Source of the DNA: Escherichia phage vB_EcoM_DalCa
Reading direction: 5' to 3' (one strand)
Sequence record: NC_054908.1
Length of the DNA: 64,000 nt
Shown here piece after piece: positions 6,416-60,951 of this stretch. The notes below the pieces were generated by a model that was not told where the DNA came from, did not search any database, and saw nothing but the letters and a program-made list of their open reading frames with translations. The translations under genes and the position numbers were made by a program. How positions within the stretch are numbered: the first letter of the stretch is position 1; each line of letters opens with the position of its first letter.

Positions 6416-7927
6416 ATGACTGACATTAAAGTACATTTTTATGATTTTAGTCACGTGAGAATTGATTGTGAAGAAAGTACATTTCATGAACTCCGTGATT
6501 TCTTTAGCTTTGAAGCTGATGGGTATCGTTTTAATCCGAAGTACAGATATGGCCACTGGGATGGACGAATCCGTCTGTTAGATTATAATCGTCTTCTTCC
6601 ATTCGGCTTAGTCGGGCAAATTAAAAAGTTCTGCGATAACTTTGGCTATAAAGCCTGGATTGACCCACAGATTAACGAAAAAGAAGAATTATCAAGAAAA
6701 GATTTTGATGAATGGCTTTCTAAATTAGAAATCTATTCAGGAAATAAAAGAATTGAACCACATTGGTATCAAAAAGATGCAGTGTTCGAAGGATTAGTTA
6801 ATCGTCGTAGAATTCTTAATCTTCCAACATCCGCAGGTAAATCTTTAATTCAAGCTCTGCTTGCTCGGTATTATTTGGAAAATTATGAAGGCAAAATTCT
6901 TATTATTGTTCCAACAACTGCTCTGACAACTCAGATGGCTGATGACTTTGTTGACTATCGTTTATTCAGTCATGCAATGATAAAGAAAATCGGTGGTGGA
7001 GCATCAAAAGATGATAAATATAAAAATGATGCACCAGTCGTTGTTGGTACATGGCAAACTGTAGTAAAACAACCGAAAGAATGGTTCTCACAGTTTGGAA
7101 TGATGATGAATGATGAATGCCATCTTGCTACAGGAAAAAGTATTTCATCTATCATATCAGGTTTAAATAACTGCATGTTCAAATTTGGTCTATCTGGTTC
7201 ATTACGTGATGGCAAAGCCAATATCATGCAGTATGTTGGAATGTTTGGTGAAATATTTAAGCCAGTAACGACTTCTAAGTTAATGGAAGATGGACAAGTA
7301 ACTGAGCTAAAAATTAATAGTATTTTTCTTCGCTATCCCGATGAGTTCACTACTAAATTAAAGGGAAAAACTTATCAAGAAGAAATAAAAATTATTACGG
7401 GGCTTAGTAAAAGAAATAAATGGATCGCTAAATTGGCTATTAAGCTTGCACAAAAAGATGAAAACGCTTTTGTCATGTTTAAACATGTATCACATGGTAA
7501 AGCTATTTTCGATTTAATTAAAAATGAATACGATAAAGTTTATTACGTATCAGGGGAAGTTGATACCGAAACCCGCAACGTAATGAAAACCTTAGCTGAA
7601 AATGGTAAAGGAATAATTATAGTAGCTAGTTATGGTGTATTTTCTACTGGTATTTCAGTTAAAAATCTGCATCACGTTGTTTTAGCGCACGGTGTTAAAT
7701 CAAAAATCATTGTATTACAAACAATCGGTCGTGTATTACGTAAGCATGGTTCTAAAACAATCGCAACAGTCTGGGACCTCATAGATGACTGTGGTGTCAA
7801 GCCAAAATCTGCTAATACTAAAAAGAAATATGTTCACTTGAACTATCTTTTAAAACACGGCATTGATCGTATTCAGCGCTACGCAGATGAAAAATTTAAT
7901 TACGTAATGAAAACAGTTAATTTATAA
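6416..7927 (+). CDS. uvsW: UvsW DNA/RNA helicase (SF2)
   Basis: 503-aa ORF; Walker A-like LPTSAGKS and DExH-like NDECH motifs; recognised as T4 UvsW. Confidence 0.93.
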   Translation: MTDIKVHFYDFSHVRIDCEESTFHELRDFFSFEADGYRFNPKYRYGHWDGRIRLLDYNRLLPFGLVGQIKKFCDNFGYKAWIDPQINEKEELSRKDFDEWLSKLEIYSGNKRIEPHWYQKDAVFEGLVNRRRILNLPTSAGKSLIQALLARYYLENYEGKILIIVPTTALTTQMADDFVDYRLFSHAMIKKIGGGASKDDKYKNDAPVVVGTWQTVVKQPKEWFSQFGMMMNDECHLATGKSISSIISGLNNCMFKFGLSGSLRDGKANIMQYVGMFGEIFKPVTTSKLMEDGQVTELKINSIFLRYPDEFTTKLKGKTYQEEIKIITGLSKRNKWIAKLAIKLAQKDENAFVMFKHVSHGKAIFDLIKNEYDKVYYVSGEVDTETRNVMKTLAENGKGIIIVASYGVFSTGISVKNLHHVVLAHGVKSKIIVLQTIGRVLRKHGSKTIATVWDLIDDCGVKPKSANTKKKYVHLNYLLKHGIDRIQRYADEKFNYVMKTVNL

Positions 7928-7952
7928 GGGCTTCGGCCCTTTGGAGAAAAAG

Positions 7953-16799: not shown

Positions 16800-16850
16800 A
16801 GACTACTATAACACAACATGATGGACTTGTAAACTACATTTTGAACTTTT
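16800..16850 (-). promoter_or_regulatory. T4 early-type promoter (GTTTACA -35, 17-bp spacer, TATAGT -10) upstream of 16483..16773
   Basis: minus-strand GTTTACAAGTCCATCATGTTGTGTTATAGT; the -35 overlaps the stop codon of the upstream alt paralog. Confidence 0.6.
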
Positions 16851-18891
16851 TAGACATTCCGTTAATGTTAACCAAAGAAGCTAAGATTTGAGAAACTTCA
16901 TTTTCCTCTTCTTTTGATTCTTCTACAAGGAATTGATTAAATCCAGCCATTGGACGAACTTCACCAGTTTCCATTAGATGGTCTCCATCATATACTGATT
17001 CTTCTAATTGTTCAGAAGGAGGAACGATTGTACCTTCGATTAGATACTTGTTATAAGCAGTTTCTTTCATAAAGTACGTACTTACTTTATTAATCTTCAG
17101 TAAAATTCCACGTGGTAGAATAACTTCAGCTTCTGATGGAAATCCTGATAAATGACCCGGAACGATAACTTTGATTCGCTCAGCTCCTTTAATTACCATA
17201 CCCACGCTAGTTTCAGCATCTTCATTAGCATATGTAGAATGACTACCCATATGCATCAAATCTTCTGCATCAACAGAACCTTCTCCTTCGCCAGAAAATA
17301 CTGCACCGGAATCATCTAGAGCCATATAGTTTTTACCATGCTCACCGAAGATATTTGGTTTAAGTGATGTCGATACGAAGTTCTTGAAATAGAACATTTT
17401 ATTTTCAATATTGTGACGCAAAGTTTTAAAGGTAACTTCTTGTCCACGGTAAAGTGTAGTTCCTGGAGGAAGAACTGAACCTTTAGCGAATGCAGAATCC
17501 AGCGTCTCAATATGTTTAATAGCTCGTTCCATATATTCTTCACGGGTAGAATCTGGTTTACCCAAAAGGAACGAGTTCATTTCAACATATGAATCTGCAC
17601 AATAATCTTCAATTACGTCAGATTCAGCCTGAGTTAATCCTTTTGGAGTTACTTCAGTACTTGCATATTCATATGCCTGAGCGGCAGATTCATTAATCAA
17701 TTTATAAATGCCATTCATGACAAATTGAATAATAGCTGTCTTTTCATCTGGCGTAGCTTTAGAACCTTTAACTAAATCATTGACAATTTTCTTAATAACA
17801 TCAAAACTATTAGAAATATTAATATCAGCAAGATCGCTTAAAATTTTATCAGTTTTATAATCAAAGAATTCTTTATTCTTTAAATATTCTTGAGAACCTT
17901 GATATGTTATATCGCTCTGCAGCTTGATAGATGGATCGCGTAAACGTGCATGGGCCAATGCAATATGATTTCGGAAGTTTTCTAGTTCATAATCGTTAGA
18001 TTTAAAACGAGAAGCACTTCTCATACCACCGATAGCTCCTTTGCTAAAGTTTGAACCAATCTGAATAACGCCAGAGTTCATCGGACCTTCTGCTTTATAT
18101 ACCGGAACTTTAGATTCAAACTCTTGATATTTCTTGGCAGCAAAGCTATCACCCTGAAGTGAAGCATCAACAGTAGAATATTGAGCTTGTGCTGCTAATC
18201 GACGACTTATTTTAGTTTTCTGAATAACAGCTTGGTCCGTGCGCTTATCATTTTCTAAAGCAATAGAAGCAGCAACAGCGACAGCTTTAGGAACAGCATT
18301 TCCTGTTTTAACGTCTACATAAACATCACCGACCTTTGATTCAACTTTTGTGAATAACTCAGTTGAAATAGGAGGTACACCTGGAATGTCTTCTAAATTG
18401 GCATTTTTACGGTAAACCATAATATATGCATATTTCTTATCATAGTCCCAGATTTCCTTTAAAAGAACATATCGACCTGCTCCTTTAGTACGTACTAAAC
18501 GGTCAGCAATAACTTGCATTTGACGAGCTGCGCCATTTGTTTTACTTTTTAGTACGCGGAATAGGCATGCGTCGATTTTATACTGTTTCATTGTTTGAAG
18601 AGCAGTATCAAAAACGGCATTAATGACACCAATTGGATTTCCACCCAAGTTTCTAAGTTTAACCAGTGATAGTTTCTCATTAACACCTATCATTACGATA
18701 TGCATCATTTTATCGCCTGGCTTAACGTTTTTATTCGTATCACCACCAGAGGTGTATGTACAAAATCTAAATCCAGGAAGCACGCTTTCTTCGCCGGCTT
18801 GAATAGCAAAAATTTGTGGTATTTTATGCTTAGGATTTAAGTTAACAACCGGCGCCGAAGCGCCGTCAAATAATTCTGTAATAAGTTCCAT
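16834..18891 (-). CDS. Alt-like ADP-ribosyltransferase paralog (second, divergent full-length copy)
   Basis: 685-aa ORF; N-terminus MELITELFD and first ~230 aa similar to Alt; C-terminal region keeps TLYRG, FVSTSL and EAEVILPRG motifs. Confidence 0.85.
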   Translation of the reverse strand: MELITELFDGASAPVVNLNPKHKIPQIFAIQAGEESVLPGFRFCTYTSGGDTNKNVKPGDKMMHIVMIGVNEKLSLVKLRNLGGNPIGVINAVFDTALQTMKQYKIDACLFRVLKSKTNGAARQMQVIADRLVRTKGAGRYVLLKEIWDYDKKYAYIMVYRKNANLEDIPGVPPISTELFTKVESKVGDVYVDVKTGNAVPKAVAVAASIALENDKRTDQAVIQKTKISRRLAAQAQYSTVDASLQGDSFAAKKYQEFESKVPVYKAEGPMNSGVIQIGSNFSKGAIGGMRSASRFKSNDYELENFRNHIALAHARLRDPSIKLQSDITYQGSQEYLKNKEFFDYKTDKILSDLADINISNSFDVIKKIVNDLVKGSKATPDEKTAIIQFVMNGIYKLINESAAQAYEYASTEVTPKGLTQAESDVIEDYCADSYVEMNSFLLGKPDSTREEYMERAIKHIETLDSAFAKGSVLPPGTTLYRGQEVTFKTLRHNIENKMFYFKNFVSTSLKPNIFGEHGKNYMALDDSGAVFSGEGEGSVDAEDLMHMGSHSTYANEDAETSVGMVIKGAERIKVIVPGHLSGFPSEAEVILPRGILLKINKVSTYFMKETAYNKYLIEGTIVPPSEQLEESVYDGDHLMETGEVRPMAGFNQFLVEESKEEENEVSQILASLVNINGMSKKFKM

Positions 18892-18894
18892 GAT

Positions 18895-20949
18895 TTATCC
18901 TTGAACGAACTTGTAAGGCATGTTTGCAATATCTATACAAGACGCAATAATTCCAAGAGATGATTCTACTTTCTGTTTAACATTTGATGAAACAAATGAT
19001 GCAAAGTCAACTCTGTCTTCTACTTCAATATCACCTGTCATTGCAACCAATTCACCAGTTTCCATTAAATGGTCTCCGTCATAGATTACCGATTCGGTGA
19101 GCTCTTCCGTGGTCATAACTTCAGCTTGAATAAGCTTGTTGTTAGTTTTAACTGTTCCATCATTGTAAGATGCATCAGTTATTTTATTAACTTTGACCAT
19201 TAATCCACGTGGCAAAATAACTTCCATTTCATTTGAAGGCGCTAAACTTCCACCGGGTAAAACAACATTGACTTTATCAGCCCCAGTAATAACCCATCCA
19301 ATTCCGACTAAATTATCGCTAGAATTAACAAGCCCTTCATCATTTTTATCGATAGAAATGTTTAGACGCTTTTCATCTGGTAAAACACCAACAGCTGAAT
19401 CAGTCATCCAAGTACCAAAAATGTTTGGATATAATGATGTTGATACAAAATTTCTAAAATAAAAAACTCGATTTTTTACCAATGCTTCATATATTGAAGG
19501 TAACATTCGCTGTGAACGATATAAAGTAATACCTTTTGGCAATCGATCACCATTTTTAAAGGCTGAATCTAAATTATCAATAGCTTTTTCTATGTCAGAT
19601 GCTGTCAAAATACTTGTACGCTCATCTGGATTATATAATCCCAAAAGAGCATTATTTATGTCTACATATCCTGAACCTACGTATTCACGAATTCCGCGTT
19701 TTTGTGCTGGTGTGTATTTAGATGAATCTTTATTTTCGACTATAGGATGTAATGACCATCCAGCTGTAAGAGCATATCCACGTAATTCTCTTCGAATAAT
19801 CTTTGTTTTTATTGCATTCCAAGAATTTTGTACTAACTCATTTGCAGCATCTTGGTTTAAATGCGAATGTTTGTTAATATTTCTTTCAAACCAAGCACCT
19901 TTATATTTTTCTAAAGTATCATCGACGATAGAAGCAATAGTTTCTAAAGTTTTTATTGAAGTAATAGATTCTTTTCGTAATTTTTCTAAAGCTTTATTTT
20001 TTATTTCTGCATTAATAATGGATTCTTTATCTTCAGGAATTATAGAAGCTTCTCTGAATGCCATCCCAGCTGTAACACTGCTAAGAGCATTCTCTAGTGC
20101 AAATCCTGAAGTAGAAATTACCGTTAATTCATTAGAATCAGAAATTAAAGGCGCGTCCGCTGGTTTATTTAATTCTGCCGCTGAAGCCTCAAATTTTTGA
20201 AACATCGGTGTTTCAAATCTAGAAGATTCCAATGACTGACTTTGTGCAATTGCTCTACGGGAAATTTTAACTTTAACGATTACAGCTTGGTCAGAACGTT
20301 TATCATTTTCTTGTGCAATAGATGCTGCAATTGCCTCATTTTTGGTTACTTGAGCTCCGGTATCTTTATTGATATAAACATCACCGACCTTCGATTCAAC
20401 TTTAGTAAAGAGCTCGGTACTAATTTCCGGAACTCCTGGAATGTCTTCTAGTGATACATTTTTGCGATGTATAAGAATATATGCATACTTTTTATCATAA
20501 TCCCAGAGTTCCTTAAGAAGGACGTATCTGCCACCTGAACGACTACGGATAAGTCTATCAGCAATAACTTGAATTTGTCGAGCTTGACCAGCGGTTTTAG
20601 ACTTAAGAATACGAAGCATACAAGCATCAATTTTATACTGACGCATTGTTTGCATTGCAACAGTAAAAACTGAATTGATATAATTAATTGGGCTTGGACC
20701 AAGACCTTTTAATTTAGCAATTGAACCTTTAGCAGTTAATGTAAAAGGAACAATATGCATCATTTTATCGCCCATTTTTAAATCGCGATTAGTATCACCT
20801 CCAGATGTATAGGTACATAAACGAAAGCCTGGTTGTTCAATTGCATCATCAACATGAACTGAAAAAATTTGCGGTATTTTCTTCTTTGGATTTAAGTTTG
20901 TAATCGGAAGAGTAGTATCTTCGTCAAATAATTCTGTAATAAGTTCCAT
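18895..20949 (-). CDS. alt: Alt, ADP-ribosyltransferase packaged in the virion
   Basis: 684 aa from the second Met; recognised as T4 Alt along its length; motifs TLYRS, FVSTSL, EMEVILPRG. Confidence 0.92.
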   Translation of the reverse strand: MELITELFDEDTTLPITNLNPKKKIPQIFSVHVDDAIEQPGFRLCTYTSGGDTNRDLKMGDKMMHIVPFTLTAKGSIAKLKGLGPSPINYINSVFTVAMQTMRQYKIDACMLRILKSKTAGQARQIQVIADRLIRSRSGGRYVLLKELWDYDKKYAYILIHRKNVSLEDIPGVPEISTELFTKVESKVGDVYINKDTGAQVTKNEAIAASIAQENDKRSDQAVIVKVKISRRAIAQSQSLESSRFETPMFQKFEASAAELNKPADAPLISDSNELTVISTSGFALENALSSVTAGMAFREASIIPEDKESIINAEIKNKALEKLRKESITSIKTLETIASIVDDTLEKYKGAWFERNINKHSHLNQDAANELVQNSWNAIKTKIIRRELRGYALTAGWSLHPIVENKDSSKYTPAQKRGIREYVGSGYVDINNALLGLYNPDERTSILTASDIEKAIDNLDSAFKNGDRLPKGITLYRSQRMLPSIYEALVKNRVFYFRNFVSTSLYPNIFGTWMTDSAVGVLPDEKRLNISIDKNDEGLVNSSDNLVGIGWVITGADKVNVVLPGGSLAPSNEMEVILPRGLMVKVNKITDASYNDGTVKTNNKLIQAEVMTTEELTESVIYDGDHLMETGELVAMTGDIEVEDRVDFASFVSSNVKQKVESSLGIIASCIDIANMPYKFVQG

Positions 20950-21001
20950 CATAGCCTCTCTAGTGTTTATTCTATTTATAAAATTAAAGGCCCGAAGGCC
21001 T

Positions 21002-29975: not shown

Positions 29976-29976
<1 letters not shown>
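29779..29976 (-). CDS. hypothetical protein
   Basis: 65 aa from the internal Met whose ATG overlaps the pseT stop; track ORF extends to 30006. Confidence 0.5.
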
Positions 29977-31176
<1,200 letters not shown>

Positions 31177-32611: not shown

Positions 32612-34199
<1,588 letters not shown>

Positions 34200-49797: not shown

Positions 49798-49826
49798 TGA
49801 GGGAGCCTTCGGGTTCCCTTTTTCTT
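49798..49826 (+). terminator. hairpin (GGGAGCC-TTCG-GGTTCCC) plus T-run after gene 35
   Basis: GC stem with UUCG loop followed by TTTTTC. Confidence 0.6.
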
Positions 49827-58360: not shown

Positions 58361-58510
58361 TTACTGCATGACTGTGATAACTGTCATGATAACACGTTGA
58401 ATTCCGAACGCAAGAAGACCTCCTGCTACGGCAGGAACAACACCTAAACCCGCCAGTAAAATGCCACCAGATACTAATGCAGCGCTTGTGATACCAATGA
58501 ATGGACTCAT
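58361..58510 (-). CDS. small hydrophobic membrane protein (49 aa) translationally coupled to gene 52
   Basis: manual translation MSPFIGITSAALVSGGILLAGLGVVPAVAGG...; ATG overlaps the gene 52 stop; below track length cutoff. Confidence 0.45.
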   Translation of the reverse strand: MSPFIGITSAALVSGGILLAGLGVVPAVAGGLLAFGIQRVIMTVITVMQ

Positions 58511-59835
58511 TTGATTTCCTCTAAATCTTTGGTGTATTCTGTAACTACATCAGTAGTTTTCCAATATTCGTTTTCTTCTTTTTTGGCTTTAGCTTCTTCA
58601 GCAAGTTTCTTTGCTTCGTCGGAAGTCATATGAAAAATGTTCATTCCAACTAGTTTATCAACATAAGAAGAATACATATCAATTTTAGAAAGTTCTTCGG
58701 TCAGTTCTTTGCGAGTTTTACCTTGTACAACAATTTCACCTGAAATTACTTTCTTAATGAAATGTGCCTTGGCAAAAGCTAAACGAAATGCTGATTCAGT
58801 TTCTTTGATTTTGTTATCAATTCGTTTTTGGACATAAGTTTTACGAACTTCAACGAAGTCTTTGATTAAATCAACTACATTATCGTAAACTTGCAGCTTT
58901 CCTTTCTCATTAATGACGGTAATATTCTGGGAACGACGCTCAATCAACCCGAAGTCTTTCATAATTTTTGCATGGCGTTCTTCTTCATTATCGCTCAAAG
59001 AGTATTCTTTTCGGAATTTAACTTTGAAGCCAAAGCCATGCTCACCACAAGCATCATCCCATGTAATGAAGCCTTTATCTTCAAGCGGGTCTAAGATTTT
59101 ACTCACATAAGTTTCACGATCATACTTATATGGAATCTCAGTGATATGCATTTGAGTTCGTGAAGTAAACTTATATGTTCCACGAATTTCATATTGCCCA
59201 TCAATTTCAACGACTTCACCACGAAATTCTGGGAATTCTACCTTCGGTTTAGTTACTTTCTTTCCTTGAAGAGCTTGCAGTACAGCTTTCTTGACAGAAG
59301 AAACACTATGAGGAAGAATGTAAGTTGCATAACCAGTTGCAATACCGGAAACACCATTAAGAAGAACAGTAGGAATAATAGGCAAATAGAAAGCAGGAGG
59401 AATGTGTTCTTTATCTTGATGTACTGGAGCATATTCAGTATCTTTATATACGTTATAGAAATTTTTACTTACACGAGCAAAAATATAACGACTTGCTGCT
59501 GCCTTTTGAACGGTACGAGAACCAAAGTTTCCTTGACCGTCTAACAAAGGAAAGTTATTATTCCAAGTATTAGCCATCAAAGCCCCCGCATCTTGTGCAG
59601 AGTTTTCACCATGATGATATCCAAGGTCAGCTACACCACCTGCAATAGAAGCAAGTTTGTGAAACTTATCTTTATTTCCTCGTGCCAAATCAAGAGCTCG
59701 AGCAATAACAAATCGTTGAACTGGCTTAAATCCATCAATCATATTTGGAATAGCACGATTTTCAACCGTGTACATAGCATAAGCCAATGCTTCATTATCA
59801 ATGATACTTTTTAAATCGCGATTATTCAGTTGCAT
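58507..59835 (-). CDS. 52: topoisomerase II medium subunit gp52
   Basis: 442-aa ORF recognised as T4 gp52. Confidence 0.93.
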   Translation of the reverse strand: MQLNNRDLKSIIDNEALAYAMYTVENRAIPNMIDGFKPVQRFVIARALDLARGNKDKFHKLASIAGGVADLGYHHGENSAQDAGALMANTWNNNFPLLDGQGNFGSRTVQKAAASRYIFARVSKNFYNVYKDTEYAPVHQDKEHIPPAFYLPIIPTVLLNGVSGIATGYATYILPHSVSSVKKAVLQALQGKKVTKPKVEFPEFRGEVVEIDGQYEIRGTYKFTSRTQMHITEIPYKYDRETYVSKILDPLEDKGFITWDDACGEHGFGFKVKFRKEYSLSDNEEERHAKIMKDFGLIERRSQNITVINEKGKLQVYDNVVDLIKDFVEVRKTYVQKRIDNKIKETESAFRLAFAKAHFIKKVISGEIVVQGKTRKELTEELSKIDMYSSYVDKLVGMNIFHMTSDEAKKLAEEAKAKKEENEYWKTTDVVTEYTKDLEEIK

Positions 59836-59839
59836 AAAT

Positions 59840-59980
59840 TTACCATACTAGTGAATGTAGTGCCATAATAACATCAGAAATGAAAAGCACGACTTGAATT
59901 AATCCGAACATTACTCCATAATATAGTGCTACTAATAAAGTAGCAAGGGCTAATGAATAGCCCAAGATTTTCTTAATCAT
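59840..59980 (-). CDS. small hydrophobic protein (46 aa; 52.1 position)
   Basis: manual translation MIKKILGYSLALATLLVALYYGVMFG...; below track length cutoff. Confidence 0.45.
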   Translation of the reverse strand: MIKKILGYSLALATLLVALYYGVMFGLIQVVLFISDVIMALHSLVW

Positions 59981-60131
59981 TAGTAGATAACAACACAAAT
60001 GTTAAATATGCACACATACCCTGAGCTAAAGCTTGCGAAAACACACTGCTGGCATCAATACAGATAGTTAAAACACATGCTACTATCCAACAAATAAATG
60101 AAATAACTCCTAATAATTTTGCAATATTCAT
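59973..60131 (-). CDS. ac: Ac-type small membrane protein (acriflavine sensitivity locus), 52 aa
   Basis: manual translation MNIAKLLGVISFICWIVACVLTICID...; position between stp and 52 as in T4. Confidence 0.5.
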   Translation of the reverse strand: MNIAKLLGVISFICWIVACVLTICIDASSVFSQALAQGMCAYLTFVLLSTND

Positions 60132-60138
60132 ATTTTCC

Positions 60139-60219
60139 TCACTGGCGTCCGAAGACGCCTTTGGTTTTAAGATTGTTACGATAGAACTGCATCACATGTT
60201 CGTTATGGAAATTACTCAT
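60139..60219 (-). CDS. stp: Stp peptide (26 aa)
   Basis: manual translation [26 protein letters not shown] recognised as T4 Stp; ATG overlaps the ndd stop. Confidence 0.75.
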
Positions 60220-60677
60220 TAATATGCCTGCAAAACAAATTTAAAGTTATCAGCCAACATACGGTTCATTTCTTCAAGTGTTTGATACTCAGAATGATGA
60301 TTACGAGTAAACGCTAAAGCTAACTGTCCTTTTCCAAATCCCGTCGTCAGAGGTTTCATCTTAGAAGCAGGCAGATAAAATACTGTGTATGGAACATTGT
60401 TATTTGCAATAGTACGCGCAAGTTGAGACCGGCGTTGACGAATATGACTTAGAACTGCGCTGAATCCTTGCTTAGAACGCTGATTACCCACATAAAATCG
60501 TGCGGATACGCACGGATTACTAAATGGACGACCATCTAATTTACACACTAAAAAGTAAAATCCAGGTTTAGATAAAATATCTTTATGCGGAGTTCCTAAA
60601 AACCATTCACCACCCTTGATTGTACCAATAACAGTTGCGCCTGCATCATTCAGATCAGTAACAGTCATGTATTTCAT
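60219..60677 (-). CDS. ndd: Ndd nucleoid disruption protein
   Basis: 152-aa ORF recognised as T4 Ndd. Confidence 0.85.
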
Positions 60678-60735
60678 ATTAATTTCCTCTAAATTATTTT
60701 CTACTCCAAGGCCGCATGAATACGCGGCTATTAAA

Positions 60736-60951
60736 TTAATCGTCGCAGTCGACGCTCAATTCCCAAAACTCTTCTACAGTATAAGTTTCAGTATCATTTT
60801 CAATACAGAAACGTTCATTACTATTATTTGCTAAAGTAGCATTAACTGTCGGTTTCTCGCTAGTGCTCTTAAGAGGTGAAATACGAATTAACTGATCACC
60901 GTTATCTAAACAAAAAATTTCACCGACTTTTACATCTTTAAAACTTTTCAT
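60736..60951 (-). CDS. hypothetical protein (ndd.1 position)
   Basis: 71-aa ORF. Confidence 0.6.

Follow-up and report, generated by a model that had tools for sequence, protein, structure and literature searches.

The interval between ndd and gene 52 of Escherichia phage vB_EcoM_DalCa (NC_054908.1) raises two questions: are the three very short ORFs found there genes, and what is the role of an RNA hairpin that lies inside the first of them? Both were examined in the 64,000-nucleotide stretch of this record that is called the window below; coordinates are those of the window unless another locus is named.

Gene order and spacing between ndd and gene 52

Every gene from 58.5 to 61 kb of the window is oriented on the minus strand. 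The ndd gene (60219-60677, minus strand) encodes the 152-aa nucleoid disruption protein (Pfam PF06591, E 1.2e-94, 314.8 bits). It is followed by stp (60139-60219, minus strand; 26 aa with an ATG start; phrog_6763), by ac, the acridine sensitivity/resistance locus (59973-60131, minus strand; 52 aa with an ATG start; phrog_2501, 3.7e-25), and by 52.1 (59840-59980, minus strand), which encodes a predicted membrane peptide of 46 aa when read from its ATG. Gene 52, for the topoisomerase II medium subunit (58507-59835, minus strand; 442 aa), was identified from the ORF list and from synteny with T4 and RB27. The initial annotation had proposed three genes of fewer than 60 aa between ndd and gene 52, and all three ORFs were found on the minus strand at the positions proposed. 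It had also described the cluster as missed by the ORF track; the genes are indeed absent from that track, simply because it omits ORFs shorter than about 60 aa. A cut-off of this kind conceals known functional phage genes.

The genes are tightly packed. At the ndd/stp junction, the ndd TAA and the stp ATG have base 60219 in common in the sequence TAATG, as the initial annotation had noticed. The stp UGA stop codon (60141..60139) overlaps the ac Shine-Dalgarno sequence GAGG (60140..60137) in an ac initiation region that we delimit from the sequence at 60129..60140 (minus strand); this region ends with the ac ATG (60131..60129), and GAGGAAAAU lies directly 5' to that ATG. The 3' end of ac and the start of 52.1 overlap by 8 nt (ATGATTAA), and 4 nt separate the 52.1 stop codon from the start of gene 52. 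In the mechanical ORF list 52.1 appears as an ORF of 52 aa, with an upstream TTG taken as its start. Since neither stp nor 52.1 has a strong Shine-Dalgarno sequence of its own, coupling to translation of the upstream cistron would be the simplest explanation for the translation of both. The close packing of stp, ac and 52.1 suggests polycistronic expression with such coupling. The peptides Ac and gp52.1, previously described as hydrophobic products of overlapping frames, have GRAVY values of 1.42 and 1.68, respectively, and are strongly hydrophobic, with two apolar segments in Ac; Stp is hydrophilic, with a value of -1.03.

Comparison with T4 and RB27

A megablast search with positions 59700-60800 matched 581 phage records, nearly all of them T4-like, and 492 of these covered at least 80% of the query. 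The top record was RB27, at 97.9% identity; with a 24-kb query the best identity was 97.3%. By sequence the phage is assigned to the genus Tequatrovirus, and the window seems to represent the rIIB-proximal end of its genome. Annotated 52.1, ac, stp and ndd genes are present in the T4 reference and in RB27, in the order and with the spacing found here, and gene 52 is syntenic in each. In both annotations stp is labeled 'activator of host PrrC lysyl-tRNA endonuclease', and it lies, as in the present phage, 3' to ndd and 5' to ac, 52.1 and 52.

An alignment with the T4 stp/ac region had been specified beforehand as a check on the gene assignments. The predicted Stp is 100% identical to T4 Stp (NP_049878) over its 26 residues, so that the peptide had rightly been called exact; because no residue differs from T4, a loss of residues needed for Stp activity, which had been raised as a possible objection, does not arise. 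The T4 and DalCa stp genes differ at just two nucleotides, both synonymous (CAT/CAC at His8 and ACC/ACT at Thr19), and every nucleotide difference from T4 and RB27 taken together is synonymous. Stp matches Pfam PF08133 over positions 1-26 of 26 (75.3 bits against a cut-off of 25; E 2e-21). T4 has the same TAATG after ndd, the same hairpin at the 3' end of stp and the same ac initiation region. All residues of T4 Ac (NP_049877, 51 aa) are present in the Ac peptide (51/51), which has in addition a single Thr inserted close to its C-terminus (…LLSTND; …LLSND in T4); the extra Thr is also present in RB27 and YUEEL01, and the DalCa and RB27 Ac peptides are identical. The Pfam scan returned no family for Ac, which is recognized instead by its sequence identity to the product of T4 ac, a gene defined by genetics, and by the shared gene order and Shine-Dalgarno sequence. 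Gp52.1 is identical to T4 gp52.1 (NP_049876) at 45/46 residues, the exception, A14T, being shared with RB27 and SP18; it is identical to RB27 gp52.1 and matches PF24129 (DUF7396) over positions 1-46 of 46 (81.9 bits against a cut-off of 27; 3.5e-23). T4 gp52.1 is likewise 46 aa long, and in T4, too, its gene overlaps ac by 8 nt and is separated from gene 52 by 4 nt.

Short ORFs of this size can occur by chance, and the three are all below 60 aa, with no strong Shine-Dalgarno sequence belonging to 52.1 or stp. We nevertheless regard it as hardly credible that any of them is an untranslated chance ORF. Both stp and ac were defined genetically in T4 (PMC3014915; bioRxiv 10.1101/2025.06.30.662393), the overlapping stop and start codons are kept across genera, and substitutions are biased toward synonymous changes: comparison of 52.1 with its Dhakavirus and Gaprivervirus counterparts gave 11-14 synonymous codon differences against 3-7 non-synonymous ones, most of these conservative. 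The ndd-stp-ac-52.1-52 segment is almost certainly an ordinary early gene string of a T4-like phage, transcribed from the minus strand. Since all of the genes named here were previously annotated, and stp and ac have been characterized experimentally in T4, the gene content itself is already known.

Some differences between records in the annotation of these genes should be noted. The G28 record gives ac a GTG (GUG) start in place of ATG, the RB27 ndd gene (positions 2020-2532 of locus L001) is annotated with an 18-codon N-terminal extension, and in the T2 reference (positions 913-954 of L010) ac is annotated as just 13 codons.

Predicted functions of Stp, Ac and gp52.1

T4 Stp is necessary and sufficient for activation of the latent tRNA-Lys anticodon nuclease PrrC (PMC3014915 section 31; PMC1484252; PMC12707154), and it relieves restriction by the type IC enzymes EcoprrI and EcoR124I (PMC3014915 section 31). 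Its function resides in the N-proximal 18 residues, and suppressor mutations cluster at residues 4-14; deletion of the last 8 codons lowers activity only moderately, and relatives of T4 are polymorphic in this tail (PMC3014915 section 31). The N-proximal 18 residues are intact and identical to T4 in DalCa. Identity with the T4 products is the basis on which the functions of stp and ac are carried over to this phage. Stp is thus predicted to inhibit EcoprrI and EcoR124I restriction and to activate PrrC; the order of events given in the initial annotation, in which inhibition of EcoprrI triggers PrrC, agrees with the published role (PMC3014915 section 31; PMC12707154). In this scheme Stp would bind or inhibit EcoprrI, a type IC restriction enzyme of the host, and would thereby unmask the latent PrrC nuclease where the host is prr+; the cleaved tRNA-Lys would be repaired by the phage PseT (healing) and RnlA (sealing) proteins. 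Genes for both repair enzymes were found in the window at full length: pseT, for the polynucleotide kinase/3'-phosphatase (29976-30881, minus strand), had a tblastn match to T4 PseT of 90% identity over 301 aa, and rnlA, for RNA ligase 1 (32612-33736, minus strand, from the ATG that aligns with the T4 start), matched T4 RnlA at 98.9% over 374 aa.

The logic of Stp and PrrC is shared with other inhibitors of type I restriction, Ocr, ArdA and Ral, which are sensed by an attached suicide effector that causes abortive infection (PMC12707154; bioRxiv 10.1101/2023.04.06.535777). Stp differs from these proteins in being a type IC-specific peptide of 26 residues that is unrelated in sequence and is no DNA mimic (PMC12707154).

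T4 Ac is a non-essential membrane peptide of 51 aa whose loss gives resistance to acriflavine (bioRxiv 10.1101/2025.06.30.662393; PMC13250531), and according to a proposal in a 2025 preprint it would interfere with efflux by AcrAB-TolC (bioRxiv 10.1101/2025.06.30.662393). By its identity to the T4 product, the Ac of DalCa is likewise expected to be a small membrane peptide that renders infection sensitive to acriflavine; gp52.1 is probably a conserved small membrane peptide. With Stp, the enzymes that repair PrrC damage, Ac and gp52.1, the window contains the complement familiar from T4.

A C(UUCG)G hairpin in the stp tail

The minus strand of stp encodes a C(UUCG)G tetraloop hairpin, GGCGUC-UUCG-GACGCC, at 60144..60159. 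It has six Watson-Crick pairs and a 4-nt loop and extends over codons 21-25 into the first base of codon 26, which leaves 12 nt between its end and the ac ATG. A hairpin within stp had been reported in the initial annotation, and it is real; the end given there, 60160, is replaced by 60159, the register of the stem having been misparsed. In isolation the coding-strand hairpin has a predicted folding energy of -12.2 kcal/mol (z = -3.0). The complementary sequence on the plus strand, GGCGTC-CGAA-GACGCC, gave -12.0 kcal/mol, and it is on the minus (transcribed) strand that the element belongs to the C(UUCG)G class. When a wider 131-nt stp region was folded, no significant larger structure was found (z -1.1), and the local hairpin alone is meaningful. 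No Rfam family matched at gathering thresholds in a scan of the whole 64-kb window, which places the stp hairpin outside the curated RNA families. In the nrdB/td part of the genome, too, the scan recognized no group I intron, and the phage therefore appears to lack the T4 introns there.

Hairpins of the C(UUCG)G type, described as 'extraordinarily stable', were first discovered in T4 mRNA, according to the portion of PMC4371310 that recounts Tuerk et al. 1988. Those T4 hairpins resemble the one in stp in having a GC-rich stem and in lying at a cistron junction just 5' to a ribosome-binding site. The position relative to the upstream gene is different: the stp hairpin lies wholly in coding sequence, whereas most of the others start at or just after the upstream stop codon and overlap it by a few bases at most.

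A count of C(UUCG)G hairpins in the window, with 6 bp as the minimum stem length, gave twelve, and they are members of the known T4 intercistronic hairpin class. Most start at or a few nt past the upstream stop codon; six of the twelve have a start codon within the next 11-37 nt, and the stp hairpin is the sole one that is wholly inside known coding sequence. Examples on the plus strand are at 1293-1312, 7926-7941 and 49799-49820, and examples on the minus strand are at 63054-63035, 62820-62803, 25818-25797, 24937-24922, 21004-20985 and 4255-4238. The window also has two consecutive ORFs of 685 aa each (16834-18891 and 18895-20952, both minus strand), which could be tandem paralogues; the second of these contains a hairpin, CGGCGC-UUCG-GCGCCG (18865..18850), some 26 nt past its start.

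Probable selection on the hairpin at the RNA level

All encodings of the peptide GVFGRQ, which spans the hairpin, were weighted by the codon usage of the phage itself. A six-pair Watson-Crick stem is formed by 0.055% of the weighted encodings (P = 5.5e-4), and the observed encoding is at the energy minimum, at -11.5 kcal/mol against a weighted mean of -1.7 kcal/mol. The codons that build the stem and loop are used in the phage at frequencies of 13% (GGC), 9% (GUC), 30% (UUC) and 14% (CGC), so that GGC, GUC and CGC count as rare. In a set of 15 unique T4-like sequences, drawn from three Tevenvirinae genera, every change within the hairpin preserves pairing: the changes are C to U opposite G, UUCG to UUUG in the loop, and C to U opposite G at position 16. 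The block UGAGGAAAAUAUG, 3' to the hairpin, is almost invariant in the Tequatrovirus, Dhakavirus and Gaprivervirus sequences. Third positions were variable at 13/19 sites in codons 2-20 against 2/5 in the hairpin, the number of sites being too small for this difference to be significant alone.

Siphoviruses of the Kagunavirus type, whose Stp-like peptides are described below, encode the same KGVFG residues with the codons GGA/GGG GUG UUU GGA AAA, which form no stem (-3.3 kcal/mol). T2-type phages have a different stp tail, NFGILGFKK, and no hairpin; thus, the hairpin is lineage-specific and is dispensable in at least one lineage. Taken together, the codon choice, the conservation among T4-like phages and the contrast with the siphoviruses indicate, as far as sequence comparison can, that the hairpin is under selection as RNA.

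That the stem is instead an accidental result of encoding the tail GVFGRQ, with no role in the RNA, is in our view improbable, although its location within coding sequence and the T2-type phages that do without it would both fit such an accident, and the retention of GVFG in Kagunavirus suggests that the tail is to some degree selected as a peptide. The phages that share those residues and form no stem argue against it, as do the preserved pairing of all natural variants and an encoding that is at the energy minimum and belongs to the 0.05% of weighted encodings able to form the stem. In addition, the peptide constraint on the tail is evidently weak, since Stp activity falls just moderately when the last 8 codons are deleted (PMC3014915). 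The stp tail, with strongly non-random codons that build a UUCG hairpin in front of the ac start, offers a clean case in which to test how RNA structure constrains coding sequence, and the evidence for selection on it as RNA is a mildly new angle on this locus.

Terminator or junction element

The hairpin had been suggested to act as a terminator or a processing site. The coding strand continues after the stem with AGUGAGGAAAAUAUG and has no U-tract there; the hairpin is thus not a canonical intrinsic terminator of the stp/ac transcript, and the processing half of that suggestion is the more plausible one. A Rho-independent terminator at this place would end the ndd-stp transcript before ac. 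The stem of 6 bp is GC-rich and the tetraloop extra-stable, and in phage G28 the pipeline of one submitter labeled exactly this hairpin 'putative transcriptional terminator, -10.30'. Apart from the missing U-tract, however, the terminator scan reported the site solely on the plus strand, and such a terminator would leave ac, 52.1 and gene 52 downstream with no promoter of their own above shuffle expectation. In the promoter scan 13 promoter-like sites were found where shuffling predicts 11.7, so that no internal promoter can be argued for ac or 52.1. We therefore consider it quite unlikely that the hairpin terminates the sense transcript.

It is also unlikely, in our estimate, that the element works on the plus strand, as a terminator for antisense transcription or for late read-through across the early gene block. 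There the stem GGCGTCCGAAGACGCC, with its equally stable fold, is followed by the T-rich tail TTTGGTTTTA and passes the filter for terminator-like sites, of which the 3-kb region has 8 where 1.5 are expected. The U-tract, however, is interrupted (TTTGGTTTT), and in Gaprivervirus the bases upstream of the hairpin on the coding strand are altered (AAATTAACT), so that the plus-strand tail is not conserved as a run of T. What is conserved across genera is a coding-strand feature, the hairpin together with UGAGGAAAAUAUG. The loop, moreover, reads UUCG on the coding strand and CGAA on the plus strand, and the special tetraloop is thus formed on the coding strand only. Literature searches on the mapping of T4 3' ends and termination, and on ribosome profiling of small T4 proteins, returned nothing usable.

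The position of a C(UUCG)G hairpin just 5' to the ac ribosome-binding site makes a role in RNA stability, in processing or in organizing the initiation region more plausible than termination. The most likely role is that of an RNA-level barrier at a 3' end or processing site which would, in addition, organize the downstream initiation region. The element would then be a standard junction hairpin through which the short stp frame happens to pass.

A conserved junction upstream of a variable ORF

The architecture in which stp is followed by a small hydrophobic ORF, 52.1 and 52 is kept in Tequatrovirus, Dhakavirus and Gaprivervirus, and across these genera 52.1, the Stp N-terminus and the cassette of hairpin plus Shine-Dalgarno sequence are fixed. 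The ORF in the position of ac is unrelated between lineages, with N-termini such as MIILVFIELI…, MQSVFTFIWL… and MNILQGFAAG…. When the ac position (59973-60131) was compared with loci L011, L012, L013, L024, L031 and L034, it was seen to be hypervariable between Tevenvirinae genera and to hold unrelated hydrophobic peptides of 45-55 aa. It thus resembles a constant site in which one small membrane peptide can be exchanged for another.

As a tentative reading, the 3' end of stp may be dual-coding: the hairpin and UGAGGAAAAUAUG would be an RNA-selected junction in front of the hypervariable membrane-peptide slot, and the sequence of the Stp tail would be dictated by the hairpin. The cassette would then set the 3'/5' boundary of the downstream message, its stability or its translation. 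The slot would be filled by ac in Tequatrovirus and by unrelated hydrophobic ORFs of 45-55 aa in Dhakavirus and Gaprivervirus, and the weakly required tail of Stp would largely follow the hairpin.

Stp-like peptides in siphoviruses

A tblastn search with Stp detected relatives of 25-27 aa outside the T4-like myoviruses, which were either unannotated or labeled 'hypothetical'. They occur in Kagunavirus, in Drexlerviridae (Nouzillyvirus PH1062 and Tlsvirus PHB07), in Segzyvirus and in Skatevirus. The ORFs are at positions 2501-2578 of locus L009 (Kagunavirus PDP21P8, OZ035783), 1501-1578 of L015 (PH1062) and 1501-1581 of L016 (PHB07), and start at position 1501 in L017 and L018; further examples are in the IMG/VR loci L029, L030, L032, L033 and L035. 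In IMG/VR an Ndd query retrieved 5 close loci, and 17 loci were obtained with a degenerate DNA pattern based on the N-terminal part of Stp, which worked better. The siphovirus peptides share the N-terminal motif MS(N/S)(F/W/H)HNEH(V/I)MQ(F/W/L)YR..(L/I)K, and all scored above the PF08133 threshold (30.8-65.8 bits). The peptides of Kagunavirus and PH1062 align across almost the whole profile, and for those of Tlsvirus, Segzyvirus and Skatevirus the alignment is limited to profile positions 1-18, which correspond to the functional region.

A chimeric assembly was considered as the source of the Kagunavirus ORF. The proteins of the flanking ORFs do not look T4-like, and similar IMG/VR contigs of 44 kb carry the same ORF, so that the Kagunavirus Stp looks genuine. 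In the library searched, no paper connecting Stp with these phages was found, also when the search was aimed at Drexlerviridae. The occurrence of this family outside T4-like phages, mostly unannotated, is a mildly new angle; it adds to the phages that might block type IC restriction or trip PrrC-like sensors.

In two genomes of the Drexlerviridae type, an annotated polynucleotide kinase gene was located 0.35-1.2 kb downstream of the Stp-like ORF, at positions 2766-3054 of L016 (PHB07 gp71) and 1853-2395 of L019 (Escherichia phage morffagbaw, OX538565). This arrangement echoes the pairing of trigger and repair functions in T4 Stp and PseT; no annotated RNA ligase was present in the 12 kb of PHB07 that were inspected. 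In morffagbaw the Stp-like ORF (positions 1501-1533 of L019) has an in-frame TAG at codon 11, following MSSFHSEHVM. Because the codons past this TAG are still Stp-like, the morffagbaw ORF is possibly a natural stp-null allele.
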